This document shows, one piece after another, positions 52,442 to 59,974 of a stretch of DNA of 64,000 nt. Position 1 is the stretch's first letter. Each line of letters starts with the position of its first letter. The stretch lies in assembly GCA_021740625.1 (NCBI GenBank), contig JAIOZK010000008.1:27627-91626 (forward strand), written 5' to 3'. The translations under genes and the position numbers were made by a program. Source of the stretch: Bacteroidales bacterium (lineage in GTDB: Bacteria > Bacteroidota > Bacteroidia > Bacteroidales > JAIOZK01). The notes beneath the pieces were generated by a model. It was not told where the DNA came from. It saw nothing but the letters and a program-made list of their open reading frames with translations, and made no database searches.

Positions 52442-53910
52442 GTTAATCCTCCTATGATCATTTGTTCGGTATAATTCGTATTGATCGTATTATCGTTTGG
52501 CCTTTGCACAAAATCATTATAATAATGCAGCAGCCATCCTTCCTTTTCCCTGTACTGATATCGGATGCTTAACTCAAGTTTTTCCGTTAAAAGCATCAGC
52601 AGGTTAAGCTCTGCAATATATTTAATTTTATCGTACACATTGTAAACCACAAATGATTGGTCCCAATATGTGTTTTCGAGTTCTCCCTGCATGTATTTGC
52701 CTTCCAGCCAGATCCTTGGGAGTATTTTTAAACTGACCGATTGAGAGAACAGGAACTTATTCTCCTGGTGATTTTCTATGATATAATAAGAAAAACTTGT
52801 TGCACCGTAAAGATTCAGATTGCCGAAAGGGTAGTAATGAACACCGGCACTAAATCCAAGCTGATCTCTTAAATTCAGCCTCGAAAAGGATGCTGCCGCT
52901 GAAACTCCCAGGCATTGAAAATTCTTGTTTGCCGAAAGCCCGATGATGTAGTCATTCAAGACTGTATCCTTTTGATTGAAAATGTACTCATTTCTGATAT
53001 AATCGAAATAATTGTAGGTTCCATTAAATTTATCGTAATATTCGATTTCCTTTTCCTCATGGGGAATATAATTCACATCAAATTTCTTATAGTTTACCCG
53101 TAGATAATGCCCGTATGCAGCAATATTCCAGTCTTTTCCCAGATAAAAATCTGCTTTGAGGTATAGCTGGATTTGCCTGATATTCGACCGGAAAGTCATT
53201 TCTTCCTGCTGTAAAGTATAGTAGTAATCACTGGTAAAGGTAGTTTCAACAATGGAATCGAGTGCAAGATCCGTATAATAGCGGTATTTGTTCTTTTTCC
53301 TTCTTTGAATATAGCTCATACCGGAGTAAAGAGAAATGTCGGGTGACAGGTTCATTTTCAAACCGGCATGTGAATAAATTGAATTCCCTGTTAGCTGGTT
53401 TTCGAGGTAAATGGTGCTGTCGGTCCACTGCTTTTGCAAATCCCCGTTGTTTTTGTCATCATTGCCAAAAAGAATTCCTCCTTCTAAATAAATTTTATCC
53501 ACAAAACCCAGGTCATCGTCAATTTGCAGTTCCTTTCTCCGGGCTTCCGGGATCTTTTGAGCAAAATTCCGTGCTTGTTTATCCCTGTTCAGGTATAGGT
53601 TGGTATAATACAGGTATGTCAGCAGAGCATTGTCGTTCTGGTTGAATTCATATGCTTTTCCAAAATGCAGTTTTGCCTTAATATAATTTTTCATGGAATA
53701 ATAGGCCACCCCCATGCGATAGCGCAGGTAATAATAATCAAAACCCTGTTTGATCCCTGCCTTCCCCAGGTCAACCAGTGAGTCCCATTTTTCTTCCTGG
53801 TATAAACGATAGGTTTCCCTGTCCAGTGTCTGAAAGTCGATCTCCTTTGCAGCCATTAGATTCATGCACAATCCTGTCATCATTAAAACCAAAAAACCAT
53901 GTTTACTCAT
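52429..53910 (-). CDS. Exported protein with N-terminal TPR and probable C-terminal beta-barrel
   Basis: Signal peptide, TPR-like repeats, aromatic beta-strand pattern ending GGLTWKM. Confidence 0.65.
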   Translation of the reverse strand: MSKHGFLVLMMTGLCMNLMAAKEIDFQTLDRETYRLYQEEKWDSLVDLGKAGIKQGFDYYYLRYRMGVAYYSMKNYIKAKLHFGKAYEFNQNDNALLTYLYYTNLYLNRDKQARNFAQKIPEARRKELQIDDDLGFVDKIYLEGGILFGNDDKNNGDLQKQWTDSTIYLENQLTGNSIYSHAGLKMNLSPDISLYSGMSYIQRRKKNKYRYYTDLALDSIVETTFTSDYYYTLQQEEMTFRSNIRQIQLYLKADFYLGKDWNIAAYGHYLRVNYKKFDVNYIPHEEKEIEYYDKFNGTYNYFDYIRNEYIFNQKDTVLNDYIIGLSANKNFQCLGVSAAASFSRLNLRDQLGFSAGVHYYPFGNLNLYGATSFSYYIIENHQENKFLFSQSVSLKILPRIWLEGKYMQGELENTYWDQSFVVYNVYDKIKYIAELNLLMLLTEKLELSIRYQYREKEGWLLHYYNDFVQRPNDNTINTNYTEQMIIGGLTWKM

Positions 53911-56120
53911 AGAATTCCGTCTTTCGAGATATTGATCGCCTCTGTTTTTTGTTTCCCCTGTCGAATGACAAATTTTTTCAATTCATTCTCCCCGAAATAC
54001 ATTACAAAATTTAGAGCCCTCACCACCTTCCCTCCTATTTTTAATTCAGCAGTTGAATGCAGTTCAATCGCACTGCCAGAAATGTCTTCTGAACTCTTGT
54101 GATATAACAGGCTGTATTTTGGCCTGATGAAAATATAAAAAGGTGCAAGAAAATCCTGCAGTATCTTCCATCCTCCCAGCTTTATCCCGCTTACCGGGAT
54201 CTCATCCTCAACTTTCAATCCCCTGTAAAAACCATTCACAATCTTGAATGCACCCAGGTAGAAGTAATAAAGCAAGGTATTCTTCTTCCCCATGTAGTTG
54301 ACGAAGGAATGAATATCCCCTTCATTTTTCAGGTAAGCCTTTGCCCCGCTTGTTTTGCATAAAATGTAAGTATTGTTCAGGATATCCGTTTGTACTTCCC
54401 ATTCGAAAATTTGCTCACGACCGGATTCATCCCTGACTTCGAACTTCATCTTTTGTCCGGCAACAAAATGCAGGGCCTTTTTCAGGGTATCATTGGATCC
54501 TATGTTCGAGATTAACTGGTCTTTTTCAGGTAGGCGGAATGTTTTCAATTCATATTTTCCGGAGTGATTCAGGATATAATGTGACACAGGATAATCAACG
54601 GTTTTGGAACCCACATGTGGGGTTTCCTGCAACTGAAAATGTATATGAGGTTCCGGAGAGCGGCCCGAGTTGCCGCAATAAGCCAGCACATCGCCTTTTT
54701 TCACAAACTCCCCCCTGGTCACCTTGAATGAATCTGCTTTGATATGGCTGATCTGACTGAATACTTTTTCACGATGTTTGATCACAATGGAATTCCCCCA
54801 GTTCCTCTCCAGGTTCATATCCCCAATTTTATTGTCTTCAATGCCGTCCACGATTTCCTGCACATAGCCGTCGGCAGGGGCTACGATGGGTTTGTTATAG
54901 GCATAATAATCTTCCGGGGTATTTCCCCTGCCTTTGAATTTCTGACCTTCATCATCGAAAATCTCAAAATCCCAGGCATGTTTCCAGTCGGATTTGTGAG
55001 TCATTTCACCATCATGGGCCTGTGTCACTTTCCATTCTCCCCAGAAAGGCAATCCAATGGACACATGATCCAGGTCGTGAAAACGTTTGTGAAAATTTCT
55101 TTGCACGTACAGGTTCTTCTCCGGTGAAAACTGCTGCACCGCAACCAGTTCGGGTGATTTGAAGTATCTTTCCCTGAACTTCATCACATACAGGAAAAGC
55201 AATACGATGATATTGAAAGGCAGAGAAAAGATCGAAAGCTGGAAAATGGAGAACAATGCACTGGTGCTTGTGATGGTGATCGACAAAAGGGGTGTAAGCA
55301 GGATCACCCAGAGTACTGATAAACGTGATGGAACAACAAAGAAGCCACCCACGGCAATGGCCGAAAGGATGTAATTGAAACCGATGTAACTATAACTCAA
55401 CTCACTGATATCGGCGCCAATGAAATGATAGAAATAATAGGCTGCATAAAACCCGATGATCGAAAGCAGGAAAGCGATTCGGGAATATATCAGCAGACCC
55501 AGAGCAATCAGCAAGCCGGCAAACAAATGATACTGAAAAAAGATGGCTCCCAGTGAACGAAAATAGATCTTGATGCTTTCATGCAGGGGCAGGTTGTTGA
55601 ACCATTCGTAAATATTTACCATGGACAATCCGCCCAGCATGTACATTTCGTTCAGGTTATAAATACCCCTTTCACTGATCTCCAGCGCCGAGAATTCCCG
55701 TGCTGCCAGGGTCACCATCCAGATGCCGAACAAAAAAGAAATGCTCAGGTAGGGCAGCCCGTATTTGCCAATGATCCCTTCCAGTGAAACTGTGATGAAC
55801 AAAGTCAGAATGGCCGTAAAAATCAGGAATACATAAAACTCCACGGAAGGCTGGAAGAAAACACCAACCCCCAGTCCAACCAGCAAAGAATTGAATCCGT
55901 AATAGCCGGATCTGATATTGAATCGGTTAAATCCCAGCACAAAAGCCATGGCATTTGAAATGATCACGGCCAGCATCCCGCTGATACCGGCATAAAGATC
56001 GAAAAAGGAAACAATGATCAATGCCAGCGCAAAAATTTTATTGTTCGAGAAGAATACCTGTGTATAACTGTTTAACAGGCTTTCGATAAAGGCAGATATT
56101 TTGATCTTGCTGCTGTTCAT
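53907..56120 (-). CDS. Urea transporter (UT) domain fused to peptidase M23 domain
   Basis: N-terminal ~320 aa TM with QVFF, GYYGFNS.LVG, GAIFFQ, LPF motifs; M23 H...D (AWDFE) and GNSGRSPEPHIHFQ. Confidence 0.85.
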   Translation of the reverse strand: MNSSKIKISAFIESLLNSYTQVFFSNNKIFALALIIVSFFDLYAGISGMLAVIISNAMAFVLGFNRFNIRSGYYGFNSLLVGLGVGVFFQPSVEFYVFLIFTAILTLFITVSLEGIIGKYGLPYLSISFLFGIWMVTLAAREFSALEISERGIYNLNEMYMLGGLSMVNIYEWFNNLPLHESIKIYFRSLGAIFFQYHLFAGLLIALGLLIYSRIAFLLSIIGFYAAYYFYHFIGADISELSYSYIGFNYILSAIAVGGFFVVPSRLSVLWVILLTPLLSITITSTSALFSIFQLSIFSLPFNIIVLLFLYVMKFRERYFKSPELVAVQQFSPEKNLYVQRNFHKRFHDLDHVSIGLPFWGEWKVTQAHDGEMTHKSDWKHAWDFEIFDDEGQKFKGRGNTPEDYYAYNKPIVAPADGYVQEIVDGIEDNKIGDMNLERNWGNSIVIKHREKVFSQISHIKADSFKVTRGEFVKKGDVLAYCGNSGRSPEPHIHFQLQETPHVGSKTVDYPVSHYILNHSGKYELKTFRLPEKDQLISNIGSNDTLKKALHFVAGQKMKFEVRDESGREQIFEWEVQTDILNNTYILCKTSGAKAYLKNEGDIHSFVNYMGKKNTLLYYFYLGAFKIVNGFYRGLKVEDEIPVSGIKLGGWKILQDFLAPFYIFIRPKYSLLYHKSSEDISGSAIELHSTAELKIGGKVVRALNFVMYFGENELKKFVIRQGKQKTEAINISKDGIL

Positions 56121-57068
56121 TTAAAAACCGGCTTGTTCTTCAAATTTAAACAATTCCGAAAGCCTGAATTCCCTGAGGTGGTTTGCCAGTGCATCACCGC
56201 AAACAAATCCTGACTCCAGGATAAATCCGTTTAACAGATCATTGGGTATATCCTCGAAATAGAAATTCAGCAGCCGGACATTCGGTGCTGCATTTTTCCA
56301 GAGTTCATCAGCATCCTTTTCCTCCTCTGTTTTCAAAACTTCAAACAATGCAGGAGGGAGGTCTTTTTCATTGATCAGTTTTCGGCTGTCGGACAAAACA
56401 TAGGCGGCTTTCCCCGAATCATGAAACAGGCGTGCATAAAGATGCGTTCCTGTTTTGTTGACAAAGTGATCCGTAAAAATACCATCGCTGCCAAAGAGGG
56501 CCAGGTCCATTTCATCTGCAAAGCGGGCAACGGATGCATCGCTAATCACTCTGACCATAAACCCCATCTCCGCCAGCTTTTCAGCCTGTATTTTACCTTC
56601 TTCTGCCGGATAGGAAATCGTCTGGTAGATCCGTGGAAAAACAGACTTTTCCGACAATACCTCCAGAGTTTTCAAAACAACTGCAGTGTTGCTGTGCAAG
56701 AGTATGGTTTTCCGGGAAAGATCTTCTTTTTCCAGTAAGTGTTCTGCAATCTGTTGTTCAATTCCCTGCCATTGATTTAGATATTCTGCCAGGAAAGAGA
56801 GCAGTTCTTCTTTTGCAGCATCGCCCTTGCGCATCAATGCTTTGTCTTCAATCCGCAAAAAGAAGCTGTTGATAAAATGGAAAAGCACGATCATACCGGA
56901 ATGGGCTGAAAACAAACGATTCAACTGATCGACCAGGCGGCCGGTTTGCAGGGATGAGGACTTTCTCAAATGTTCCTGCAGTGCCTGAAGCGTTTTTTCC
57001 AGGATCCCTGTCGAACCGCTCCGGTTATCGTGCATGATTGCTTTCAGTTTTTCTTCCCAGTTATTCAT
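56121..57068 (-). CDS. eIF2B alpha/beta/delta-like (MtnA/R15P isomerase family) protein
   Basis: DNRSGS, LLHSNT, YPAEEG...AE.L, GSDGI....VNKTGT, FEDIP..L..GFI.E.G. Confidence 0.8.
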   Translation of the reverse strand: MNNWEEKLKAIMHDNRSGSTGILEKTLQALQEHLRKSSSLQTGRLVDQLNRLFSAHSGMIVLFHFINSFFLRIEDKALMRKGDAAKEELLSFLAEYLNQWQGIEQQIAEHLLEKEDLSRKTILLHSNTAVVLKTLEVLSEKSVFPRIYQTISYPAEEGKIQAEKLAEMGFMVRVISDASVARFADEMDLALFGSDGIFTDHFVNKTGTHLYARLFHDSGKAAYVLSDSRKLINEKDLPPALFEVLKTEEEKDADELWKNAAPNVRLLNFYFEDIPNDLLNGFILESGFVCGDALANHLREFRLSELFKFEEQAGF

Positions 57069-57072
57069 ATTG

Positions 57073-58431
57073 TTACAATTCGAATTTTTTCAAATGTTCC
57101 GGCACCTTTTCAAAATGGTTGATGCTTTCCATGCTTTCTTTTTCGCGGATCAGGTGGTGCTTGCCTTTCTCATCGATCATCACGATGTTGGGCCGCAATG
57201 TAATGAACTGCATCCATTGTGTCATATTGTAGGCACCCACGGAATGCACAACCACCTGCTCTCCTTTGTTCAGCAAGGGAAGGTTGGCGTTCTCACGGAT
57301 CACATCGATGTTCATGCACAAAGGACCGTAAAGCACCGTATCTTCGGTATACTGGGTAAAAGGCTGTGCTGGCGAAATTTTATGATCGTACCAGAAAGAG
57401 GTAAACAGCAGGTTTACACCAATATCGAGTATGGTGGTCCTTTTGCCATCTGCCAGCCGTTTATTGGAGATCACCGAGCCGATCAGGAAGCCGGCATCAT
57501 CGATTAGGGCACGGCCTGTTTCGAGTATCAGCAGGGGTAATTGATCCGGCTTGAAGTCGCTGTTGATCAAAGCACTGGTGATGGCCTCGGCAAAATCGTC
57601 GAAAGTGGGATTGGTATCCGATCCGGGCAGGTAAGCGCCTTTCAGGGTGTTTTTGGAAGAAAAACCGCCGCCCATGTCAATGTATTTTATTTCGTGATTG
57701 TATTTTTTCTGTATGCCCAGGGCAAGGTCAGCCATCTTATATGCCGCCACAGAATAGGCGTTGGCTGAAAGCATAAAGGTACCGATATGTGTATGCAAAC
57801 CGACCAGCTCCAGTTTCTCCGAACGCACAATCTTGTTGAGGGCATCCCAGGCCTGCCCGTTCTCGTAGTTGAAACCAAAACGATCCCACATGGGATATAT
57901 ACCGGTATCCATGTTCACACGAATGGCGACTTTGGGTTTTTTATTCATTTTGCCGGCCAGTTCGATGATGGTATACAACTCATCCAGGTGATCGATGTGG
58001 ATGAGGGAATCGTTTTCAATGGCCATTTCCAGGTCATCCACCGTTTTATCGGGACCGTTGAAAATGATCTTTTTTCCATCCACGCCGTTCAGCAACGCTT
58101 TCTGGTATTCAAATCCCGAAACCACCTCGGCCCAGGATCCTTCCTGGTGAAACACATTGCAAACCGCGCTCAGGTAATTGGTTTTATAAGACCATCCGAA
58201 TTGCACTTTGGGATAGCGCGTGCTGAATGCCTTTTTGGCTTCCCGGTAGGTTTTTCGTATGGTTTTCTCCGAGATCACAAAAAGTGGTGAACCATATTCC
58301 TTTACCAGCTCCTTCACCGCCACACCATCAATATGAGTCTTGGGTGTATATTCCGTTTTTGTACCGAATTTATTCGGCATATTGGTTTCCAGCTTCTTGA
58401 TCACCGGACGTTCGTATCTTTGTTTTTGCAT
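57073..58431 (-). CDS. Fold-type III PLP-dependent decarboxylase (LysA/BtrK-like)
   Basis: SYKTN PLP lysine, IFNGP, HTHIG, DMGGGF, ETGRAL, GPLCMNID, GAY. Confidence 0.88.
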   Translation of the reverse strand: MQKQRYERPVIKKLETNMPNKFGTKTEYTPKTHIDGVAVKELVKEYGSPLFVISEKTIRKTYREAKKAFSTRYPKVQFGWSYKTNYLSAVCNVFHQEGSWAEVVSGFEYQKALLNGVDGKKIIFNGPDKTVDDLEMAIENDSLIHIDHLDELYTIIELAGKMNKKPKVAIRVNMDTGIYPMWDRFGFNYENGQAWDALNKIVRSEKLELVGLHTHIGTFMLSANAYSVAAYKMADLALGIQKKYNHEIKYIDMGGGFSSKNTLKGAYLPGSDTNPTFDDFAEAITSALINSDFKPDQLPLLILETGRALIDDAGFLIGSVISNKRLADGKRTTILDIGVNLLFTSFWYDHKISPAQPFTQYTEDTVLYGPLCMNIDVIRENANLPLLNKGEQVVVHSVGAYNMTQWMQFITLRPNIVMIDEKGKHHLIREKESMESINHFEKVPEHLKKFEL

Positions 58432-58468
58432 GACTATTTTATGTGTTACTGATTATCTTATTTTTTCT

Positions 58469-58546
58469 ATTGTTCGATTGTTCCATTGTTTCATTTTTAT
58501 CCGATCTTGCTTTTAACAATAGAGCAATCGAACAATGGAACAATTG
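58469..58546. repeat. Inverted tandem 8-mer repeat inside the operon
   Basis: attgttcg-attgttcc-attgtttc vs aacaatag-agcaatcg-aacaatgg-aacaattg. Confidence 0.75.
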
Positions 58547-58549
58547 AAT

Positions 58550-59602
58550 TTACAATTCCCCATAAGTTGATATTTGTTCAAATTCTTTGATATCCACGAT
58601 CATATCGTATGCATACCGGATAAACATTTTACCGATATCGTAGGTTTTGTATGGCTCGACTTTCTCGCCCATGGCCAGGTTCACAAGGGCTTCTGGAATG
58701 TTTTGCCCGACACCTACTGCCAGATAGACCCATGCAGGAATTCTTGGATTGATCTCCAGGATATAGAAATCATTCTTTTTGTCCTTCATCAGTTCAAGTT
58801 CAAAACCGCCCCGCCATTTGGTCTGGCTGATAAACTTATCCGTGAGTTCCAGCATCTTTTTATCTGCAATGGAAATGCCGCCCCATGCTTTTCCTTTATC
58901 CGTGATGTATTGCTTTCGCATGGGTACGGCAGAAATGGTGTTCCCTTTTCCATCCCCCAGTCCTGTCACATTGTATTCTGTACCATGTACAAACTCCTGT
59001 ATGATGATGGGCAACCCCCATTTGGCTGAAATCTTGTTAAAAGCACTTTTGGCCTGCTCCGAATTGTACACAATGCTGGCATCATAATACTTTCCTTTTA
59101 CCACCAGCGGGTATTCAATACCTTCCGGCAAACGATAAAGATCATTCACTGTATAAATGGGTTCACTTCGGGGCACATGCAAATCGTACTTTTTGCCGAA
59201 TTCCGGGAGGTTGTGTTTGTGTCTCTCTTCAAATTGTTTCATGGTCGGTAAAAAAGTATGCATGCCGATCTCCTTCAATCTTTTCTCAAGTTTGATAAAG
59301 GAATACAATTCCGCATCAAAATTGGGAATGATCATATCGATCTTTTCGATGGAACTGATGTGTTCAAGTCTTTTGAAAAGATTCTCAATGCCGGTGGTAG
59401 GATAAGGCACATGATAGGTTTTATCCACCAGGTCGTGCATGTAGATGCCCGGCTCAAGCGATTCGTATGCCAGGCCGATGATCCGCACATCAAAAGAAGC
59501 CGCCTCCCGTAAAGCCCTGATCACCGCTACACCCGGTCCCGGACTGTCGATCGCATTCAATCCGCTGACAGCAATGTTATACTTCTTTTTCATTGTTTTC
59601 AT
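58550..59602 (-). CDS. ATP-grasp ligase (carboxylate-amine ligase family)
   Basis: YPLVVKG, IIQEFV.G.EY, FELE....FYILEINPR. Confidence 0.9.
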   Translation of the reverse strand: MKTMKKKYNIAVSGLNAIDSPGPGVAVIRALREAASFDVRIIGLAYESLEPGIYMHDLVDKTYHVPYPTTGIENLFKRLEHISSIEKIDMIIPNFDAELYSFIKLEKRLKEIGMHTFLPTMKQFEERHKHNLPEFGKKYDLHVPRSEPIYTVNDLYRLPEGIEYPLVVKGKYYDASIVYNSEQAKSAFNKISAKWGLPIIIQEFVHGTEYNVTGLGDGKGNTISAVPMRKQYITDKGKAWGGISIADKKMLELTDKFISQTKWRGGFELELMKDKKNDFYILEINPRIPAWVYLAVGVGQNIPEALVNLAMGEKVEPYKTYDIGKMFIRYAYDMIVDIKEFEQISTYGEL

Positions 59603-59840
59603 CTATTATTTGATATTGCTTCAGCATACTGATGAAATCATTGAAATCCTTTTCCAGGGTTTCGGCATCCACCTGGTATTTTTCAAGCAATTCCTTTTCA
59701 ATCTCATCAAAACTTTTGTTTTCCTTCAGCATATTGAAGATCTCGGCTGCAACCGGATTCACGGAATAGGATTCACCTGTAATGGGGTTGAACACAAATC
59801 CCGATTCGCTGACGGCCACATTGGATTTAATTTTTGTCAT
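59577..59840 (-). CDS. PqqD-family protein (RiPP recognition element)
   Basis: 88 aa; FVFNPITGESYSVNPVAAEIFNML...LLEKYQVD...EKDF..FI..L winged-helix pattern. Confidence 0.85.
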   Translation of the reverse strand: MTKIKSNVAVSESGFVFNPITGESYSVNPVAAEIFNMLKENKSFDEIEKELLEKYQVDAETLEKDFNDFISMLKQYQIIDENNEKEV

Positions 59841-59974
59841 TGAATAAAATGTTAAAGATTCATTTTGCAAGGATAAGATGAATTCAGCAAAAAGCTGTTA
59901 TAAAATTTTCAGAAAGATGTATAAGATTTCCGGCTTTTCAACTCTTGATGTAAAATCAAAAGAGCAGCTATTAC

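Follow-up and report, generated by a model that had tools for sequence, protein, structure and literature searches.

Why should an operon equipped with a peptide-reading protein encode no peptide for it to read? The question is raised by a 64,000-nucleotide stretch of contig JAIOZK010000008.1 from a Bacteroidales bacterium, below called the window, whose minus strand carries, in this order, genes for a PqqD-family protein, an ATP-grasp ligase, a pyridoxal phosphate (PLP)-dependent decarboxylase, an eIF2B-like protein, a fusion of a urea-transporter-like membrane domain with an M23 peptidase (UT-M23) and two TPR proteins. By its predicted fold the PqqD-family protein is an RRE, a recognition element of peptides that ribosomes make and that are modified after translation (RiPPs). 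RREs are known as readers of free ribosomal precursors and are used as a class-independent handle in RiPP genome mining; here the RRE appears to read a leader that lies within a full-size metabolic enzyme. According to our analysis, the operon may resemble a RiPP cluster without a precursor because the leader is built into the decarboxylase. From sequences and structural models taken together, we consider it likely that the N-terminal arm of this enzyme is such a built-in leader, bound by the operon's own PqqD-type RRE, and that this binding couples the ATP-grasp ligase and the decarboxylase.

The N-terminal arm of the decarboxylase

The 452-amino-acid (aa) open reading frame (ORF) of the decarboxylase opens with MQKQRYERPVIKKLETNMPNKFGTKTEY, its codons 1-20 occupying positions 58372-58431, and the N-terminus of the protein reads MQKQRYERPVIKKLETNMPNKFG. 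The first-pass annotation of this DNA, made from the letters alone, had claimed an N-terminal YxxPxI motif ahead of a LysA-type fold and a PqqD/RRE gene two genes upstream. Both are indeed there: the motif is YERPVI at residues 6-11, and the upstream gene matches PF05402 with E=4.5e-14, the ATP-grasp gene sitting between it and the decarboxylase. Between the in-frame stop upstream and Met1 there are just seven codons, and Met1 is therefore the sole start that includes the motif. The LysA and FslC models match the protein only from residue 31 and the Pfam model from residue 58, and the first ~30 residues are therefore an N-terminal extension. In an AlphaFold2 (AF2) model built on a 146-sequence alignment, with a mean predicted local distance difference test (pLDDT) of 92, the residue blocks 1-10, 11-20 and 21-30 reach only 64, 47 and 56 and have no secondary structure, whereas the fold itself exceeds 90. 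To lie outside the LysA fold and to be disordered, as is predicted for this arm, is what one expects of a short linear docking motif.

The arm is kept over a wide range of bacteria. A decarboxylase orthologue was found in 26 of 301 genomes of the phylum, and all 26 carry the motif, their N-termini following the pattern [K/R]x[Y/F]E[R/K]Px[I/V/L]...NKFG. Among 98 further diverse homologues, whose labels include Deltaproteobacteria, Planctomycetota, Omnitrophica, Armatimonadetes and Desulfobacterales, 95 have the motif at a constant offset (-40/-41) relative to the FGSPLFV block: the conservation among operon homologues, on which the first-pass annotation had made its idea depend, holds across phyla. 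When 1.84 billion representative sequences were searched exhaustively, the closest relatives aligned from residue 1-5 and the distant ones from 30-40 only; in these representatives [Y/W/F]xxPx[ILVMF] stands 40-42 (occasionally 47) residues before FGSPLFV, and the shorter N-termini are without the motif. The Tyr and Pro of the motif are invariant in alignment A2. Over 185 arms the Tyr is retained in 96%, the Pro in 100% and a hydrophobic residue at +5 in 96%, with basic residues at -3, +2 and +7, and a second element, NKFG in the window, follows at +14 to +17 after the Tyr (N 63%, K 77%, F/Y/H 78%, G/A 64%). Lys21 of this element is a possible acceptor or contact residue. Synonymous codon differences occur at R8, P9, I11 and G23 in 52-113 of 147 orthologues, which were chosen by a pattern itself requiring several of the tested residues, and the constraint therefore acts on the protein. 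Judged from these alignments, the arm motif is not a matter of chance.

The enzyme body behind the arm is assigned to the Orn/DAP/Arg decarboxylase family, both of its domain matches being above the cut-offs (PF02784, 103 bits; PF00278, 45.9 bits), and the PLP-binding K83 and the GGG stretch G254-G256 are invariant in alignment A4. Two closer assignments were tried and rejected, namely LysA (TIGR01048, 223.3 bits vs a cut-off of 297.9) and the N-citrylornithine decarboxylase FslC (NF041039, 227 bits vs 500). The best structural match of the body is FslC (7kh2), followed by LysA, DokD and BtrK. A second, more distant homologue is encoded elsewhere in the genome, its match being confined to residues 31-258.

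The PqqD-family protein and its link to the arm

Is the PqqD-family protein of a kind that reads such motifs? Encoded by the only PF05402 gene of this genome, it scores 53 bits against that model (cut-off 23.4), and in its AF2 model (pLDDT 83) we find the three beta-strands and three helices (29-39, 44-54 and 59-75) of the winged-helix RRE fold. Foldseek places it on the TbiB1-leader complex 5v1v with a template modelling (TM) score of 0.85 and a root-mean-square deviation of 1.4 A; TfuB1 also superposes. A profile of 31 family members, compared with the PDB, finds TbiB1 (4e-13), TfuB1 (3.8e-10), PbaB1 (2e-6) and LppB (3e-3) as the top four matches, all of them solved with [Y/W]xxP leaders, and PqqD proper is a weaker match to the same profile (E about 0.02).

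How such proteins hold a leader was described in 2026 for LppB and PbaB1 (PMC13381572). Discrete lasso RREs read [Y/W]xxPx[L/V/I/F/A], and YERPVI fits this motif; in LppB, the leader Tyr receives a hydrogen bond from D70 and the kink at the Pro is held by N33, D70A and N33A both weakening the binding, while a conserved Phe (LppB F74, PbaB1 F83) separates the two pockets and the double change G42N/Q79D lets the Trp-reading PbaB1 take a Tyr leader (PMC13381572). A hidden Markov model (HMM) alignment brings Asn28, Asp65 and Phe69 of the window protein onto LppB N33, D70 and F74 with identical spacing; in PbaB1 Gly and Gln take the first two of these places, in agreement with the published work (PMC13381572). 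All three rank among the most conserved residues in the alignment of the family, N28 without exception and D65 and F69 in at least 90% of members. By alignment and model, then, the window PqqD is an RRE fold with its leader-contact triad kept.

The arm and this RRE also occur together. We examined 201 loci, comprising genome loci, metagenome loci and contigs fetched by exact protein; where a motif-bearing decarboxylase has at least 1.5 kb of upstream sequence, PqqD and ATP-grasp are adjacent in 118 of 120 cases. At the level of the 301 genomes, the arm-bearing decarboxylase and the PqqD subfamily co-occur in 26/26 vs 0/275, the positives being called at E<=1e-18 and the other 275 genomes having nothing better than 1e-11; in 2 of the 26 the PqqD gene is on a different contig from the decarboxylase. 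Family members without a nearby PqqD (L111, L112, L199/L200, L201) are armless, and the concern of the first-pass annotation that the motif might be equally common in decarboxylases without an RRE neighbour is answered by these relatives and by the split of the genomes. Since L199/L200 and L201 are armless in spite of an adjoining ATP-grasp gene, the arm goes with the RRE rather than with the ligase. The few canonical LysA genes that another phylum yielded have N-termini that are short and lack the motif, and 401 genomes of the phylum to which L110 belongs hold nearly all canonical LysA plus three of the systems described here. When contigs were scanned with an alignment of diverse members, nothing but close orthologues (67-85% identity) came back, which are informative on operon conservation and not as a with/without test, and a metagenome scan seeded by armless decarboxylases gave mostly arm-bearing matches. 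In one Cytophagales genome (G702, L233:6434-6694; L106) the cassette is dispersed, with the arm-bearing decarboxylase after dnaA and PqqD alone on another contig, no ATP-grasp gene beside it.

The two partners vary in concert. Over 150 loci that have both, an arm Tyr is accompanied by Asp65 of PqqD in 134/135, the sole exception having Asn, and an arm Phe by Tyr, Ser or His at position 65 in 15/15, with Asp in 0/15. The co-varying position is the residue which touches the leader Tyr in the crystal structures. A weaker pairing links Lys/Arg at +2 of the arm to Asp/Glu68 of PqqD (132/136) and Pro at +2 to a non-acidic residue (6/6). On a tree of the decarboxylase bodies we count about three Tyr/Phe changes and two Asp/non-Asp changes.

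Split versions of the system exist as well. L113, L114 and L195 have PqqD together with an armless decarboxylase that starts at the fold (M..IDG), and each of these loci has an ORF of 72-75 aa which overlaps the end of the first ATP-grasp gene and bears the motif at its start. The peptides begin MSYTEEYERPTIQKHS..., MRAKISYTRPAIRKLS... and MSYTEEYECPTIRKHS...; their motifs, ..YERPTI, ..YTRPAI and ..YECPTI, are followed by a common G.KL..G.FPF, and CKLG or SKLA stands at an offset similar to that of NKFG in the arm. A loose form of the motif occurs in about 0.4% of small ORFs of these loci (34/7771). The PqqD partners of the free peptides keep N28, D65 and F69. In L113 and L195 the peptide gene stays by PqqD and the first ATP-grasp gene, and the decarboxylase is several genes off with a second ATP-grasp; the two peptides differ by 2 non-synonymous changes in the first 41 residues vs 15 in the remaining ~30, and the constrained part of the peptide therefore equals the arm. 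Systems with two ligases and without the small ORF (L108, L110, L119, L129) carry the arm on the decarboxylase. This complementarity looks, on sequence comparison, like gene fusion or fission of a functional module. It also fits the earlier suggestion that the arm accounts for the missing precursor gene, since a peptide gene is missing from the fused systems and present in the split ones; a scan of the operon strand in the window for a further motif-bearing small ORF gave no other plausible candidate peptide. The arm and three free peptides had no match in Pfam or NCBIfam at E up to 10, the free peptide P0455 had none in the one genome searched with it, and no new split example was found in the 401 genomes mentioned above.

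Many of the versions outside Bacteroidota have two paralogous ligases, AG1 by PqqD and AG2 by the decarboxylase (L108, L110, L119, L129, L113, L114 and L195), and in Bacteroidota there is one AG1-like copy; by score, the ATP-grasp protein of the window is slightly nearer to the AG1 copies beside PqqD than to the AG2 copies that two-ligase systems have. A protein of 871 aa, P0129, is a natural fusion of ATP-grasp and decarboxylase with the motif AYVRPSI in its linker. Split-type loci adjoin nucleotide-cyclase genes (L197:5163-6589; L198:4186-5612; L113:2646-3752), and L197 and L198 also have a PycTM-type effector, resembling Pycsar defence modules; these neighbours are probably unrelated to the split loci.

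Proposed docking of the arm and its alternatives

From the observed motif, its conservation, the predicted disorder, the fold and contacts of the RRE and its relatives, the co-occurrence, the split and fused versions and the co-variation, we infer a physical binding of the RRE to the arm, and likewise its geometry, the ligase's recruitment and what the coupling is for. Decarboxylase residues 1-32 would be a flexible arm serving as leader, of which residues ~3-13 would be bound as an added beta-strand in the beta3/alpha3 cleft of the RRE, as in the lasso B1 proteins and LppB. Tyr6 would enter the first hydrophobic pocket with a hydrogen bond to Asp65, the kink at Pro9 would be held by Asn28, and Ile11 would occupy the second pocket, bounded by Phe69. 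Docking of this kind would join the decarboxylase to the RRE and, by way of the RRE, to the ATP-grasp ligase, the enzyme that RREs usually serve, and ligation and decarboxylation could be coupled or jointly switched on. The arm may have descended from the free peptide gene that survives in related systems, or may have given rise to it.

Several observations weigh against this proposal. Decarboxylases of this kind are obligate dimers, and the monomer model is compatible with the arm packing against the other subunit. The arm lacks the Gly and Thr of lasso leaders, and the operon has neither leader peptidase nor cyclase. The co-variation of Tyr/Phe with Asp65 amounts to about 2-3 independent events on the tree, the split lineages that are independent number two only, and the co-occurrence of arm and PqqD is partly phylogenetic. 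Two loci, L106 and L141, have the motif and no adjacent PqqD, although the genome of L106 has a strong PqqD-subfamily gene on another contig.

Which of the known systems does this one resemble? The best sequence and structure matches of the window PqqD are the lasso B1 proteins solved with their leaders (TbiB1-TbiA, 5V1V/5V1U; TfuB1/FusB1-FusA, 6JX3; PbaB1-PbaA, 9X90), which share with it the discrete PqqD-family RRE of ~85 aa, the recognition motif and the conserved Asn/Asp/Phe contacts (PMC13381572). In contrast to a lasso cluster, the window operon is without B2 leader peptidase, lasso cyclase or core peptide, and its "leader" is the N-terminal end of a PLP enzyme of 452 aa; the lasso Gly and penultimate Thr are missing from it. 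A lasso precursor or cluster was accordingly considered and rejected: the motif is followed by a 420-aa enzyme, and the neighbours are ATP-grasp, eIF2B-like, UT-M23 and TPR genes. The first-pass annotation had also set a lasso precursor aside, on the missing Gly and Thr.

LppB with LppA, from the LPP family of Bacillota (9X8Z), is a YxxP-reading discrete RRE that works outside lasso pathways (PMC13381572), and its D70 (Tyr) and N33 (Pro kink) correspond to Asp65 and Asn28 of the window protein; LppA, however, is a free precursor with signal-peptidase-like processing, whereas the partners in the window are a ligase and a decarboxylase. PqqD with PqqA is similar in that a small chaperone takes up the leader at its partner's N-terminus and passes it to a modifying enzyme (PMC10906245). 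It differs in that this enzyme is a radical S-adenosylmethionine (SAM) protein and PqqA is free and 23-29 aa long. PqqA leaders read W-x-x-P-x-hydrophobic.

A peptide element that is either fused to an enzyme or separate from it is found in borosins of the OphMA type, in split borosins and in engineered LctM/LynD leader fusions, and a leader-enzyme fusion gives a constitutively assembled or activated system. In borosins it is the core and not the leader that is fused, at the C-terminus and with no RRE, and the LctM/LynD leader fusions are man-made, whereas the fusion in the window is natural and joins the leader to a downstream tailoring-type enzyme. As to chemistry, BtrI/BtrJ/BtrK of the butirosin side chain and FslA/FslC of rhizoferrin likewise have a ligation, after which a decarboxylase of the LysA fold works on an amino acid in acylated or tethered form; they differ from the window operon, which has no acyl carrier protein (ACP) and no NRPS-independent siderophore (NIS) synthetase.

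Would the arm be more than a docking site? A refinement of the docking proposal, which we regard as rather unlikely, makes the arm a covalent substrate or carrier: the RRE would present it to the ATP-grasp ligase, an amino acid would be loaded, likeliest on Lys21, the decarboxylase would act in cis on the tethered group, and M23 (elsewhere SIR2 or an amidohydrolase) at the urea-channel-like protein would release the product, a swinging-arm logic like that of BtrI/BtrJ/BtrK or LysW/LysX. It is the usual logic of RiPPs that an RRE hands the segment after the leader to a modifying enzyme, and the second conserved element of the arm, N-K-[F/Y]-G at +14 to +17 with its Lys in 77%, would be such a segment; the free peptides keep [C/S]KL[G/A] and G.FPF, with their first 41 residues constrained. 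BtrK, a decarboxylase of a carrier-tethered, ATP-grasp-loaded amino acid, is a structural relative of the enzyme, the ligase has a weak PylC-like match in its N-domain, and a gene for an amide-cleaving M23 or amidohydrolase follows the decarboxylase. PylC acylates the epsilon-amine of Lys. Against a carrier stand the lack of a universal residue, Lys or Glu, after the leader when an acceptor was sought over the arms, the subfamilies with NPFRLG, NTFAG or LDRAMTLR being without Lys there, the absence of a free C-terminus from a fused arm, and the release step that a stoichiometric self-carrier would need and that is only guessed at. If true, the system would be a protein-templated small-molecule pathway which re-uses the RiPP recognition machinery for an enzyme-borne carrier.

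It is very unlikely, in our estimate, that the arm is intrinsic to the decarboxylase, where it might for instance make a contact in the dimer, cover the active site as a lid or inhibit its own enzyme as a pseudo-substrate, while PqqD has another ligand and the association reflects shared operon ancestry. Such a view would draw on the fact that the enzymes with the arm all fall into a single broad clade, which has the operon too, so that co-occurrence is partly phylogenetic, that an AF2 monomer is blind to packing between subunits, and that the conserved Lys of NKFG could mimic a substrate of the Orn/Lys type. It is contradicted by the split systems, which encode a motif peptide beside PqqD and ATP-grasp 1, in L113 and L195 several genes away from the decarboxylase, and by the co-variation of the arm Tyr/Phe with the very RRE residue that contacts the leader Tyr in crystals. 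Moreover, the motif is the published recognition sequence of the closest solved relatives of the RRE, and the operon offers no other candidate peptide. That the motif is a chance resemblance, or is left untranslated with Met18 as the true start, has next to no probability: short motifs of this sort do turn up in small ORFs at the 0.4% (34/7771) given above, but the fixed position across phyla and the synonymous codon variation speak against both, and the orthologues lack a Met at position 18.

Should the docking of RRE and arm be as we propose, machinery for peptide recognition would seemingly have found a second use, in the assembly of enzyme with enzyme or in an enzyme-borne carrier, with the free-peptide version surviving in related systems. 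Full-text literature searches found no paper on the gene set of PqqD/RRE, ATP-grasp and decarboxylase, and no description of a natural leader-enzyme fusion read by an RRE. The operon is present in about 9% of the sampled Bacteroidota genomes, and arm-bearing homologues are labelled Desulfobacterota, Planctomycetota, Omnitrophota, Armatimonadota and Chloroflexota. Some of the "orphan" RREs returned by mining pipelines may likewise have protein ligands. One peptide, a protein of 87 aa and point mutants predicted from co-variation would make a simple entry to this six-gene system.

Operon layout and neighbouring features

The coordinates of the features are collected in the table below. In nearly all loci examined, the UT-M23 gene is the next one downstream after that of the decarboxylase. 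The gene for the protein resembling eIF2B or ribose-1,5-bisphosphate isomerase, inserted between the two, was seen among these loci only in the genome of the window and in three close relatives (L035-L037).

Table. Features of the operon in the window (positions counted from its first nucleotide)
Feature	Position	Strand	Basis or remark
PLP decarboxylase ORF	57073-58431	minus	452 aa
N-terminal arm, decarboxylase residues 1-32	58336-58431	minus	conserved, predicted disordered
YERPVI, residues 6-11, leader-type RRE recognition motif [Y/F/W]xxPx[I/L/V/F]	58399-58416	minus	translation checked
NKFG, residues 20-23, second conserved arm element	58363-58374	minus	position conservation
Fold-type III PLP decarboxylase body (Orn/DAP/Arg decarboxylase family)	57073-58335	minus	PF02784 + PF00278
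PqqD-family gene, discrete RRE	59577-59870, probable start 59840 (87 aa from Met)	minus	PF05402, E=4.5e-14
PqqD Asn28, putative leader contact	59757-59759	minus	HMM alignment to LppB
PqqD Asp65, putative leader contact	59646-59648	minus	HMM alignment to LppB
PqqD Phe69, putative leader contact	59634-59636	minus	HMM alignment to LppB
ATP-grasp ligase, AG1 type, adjoining PqqD	58550-59602	minus	ATPgrasp_Ter, ATP-grasp_3, weak PylC-like_N match
eIF2B-like protein, optional cassette insert	56121-57068	minus	PF01008
Urea-transporter-like membrane domain + M23 peptidase fusion, last conserved core gene	53907-56120	minus	PF03253 + PF01551
Inverted repeat in the ATP-grasp/decarboxylase spacer	58469-58536	.	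22-nt arms, 2 mismatches

The end of the cassette varies between phyla. Outside the phylum of the window the urea-transporter-like protein may be fused to, or followed by, SIR2 instead of M23 (L108:7358-9268; L110:7414-9923), in L110 a Macro-domain gene also comes after it, and in L114 an amidohydrolase gene follows the decarboxylase. The release or end module is therefore interchangeable.

The ATP-grasp and decarboxylase genes abut or overlap in most orthologous loci, unlike in the window, where a spacer of 118 nt (58432-58549) lies between them. It contains an inverted repeat with arms at 58469-58490 and 58515-58536, made of GAACAAT-like units, unique within the window and with 0 such repeats expected by chance. 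This repeat may serve as attenuator or operator, or may be a small insertion.

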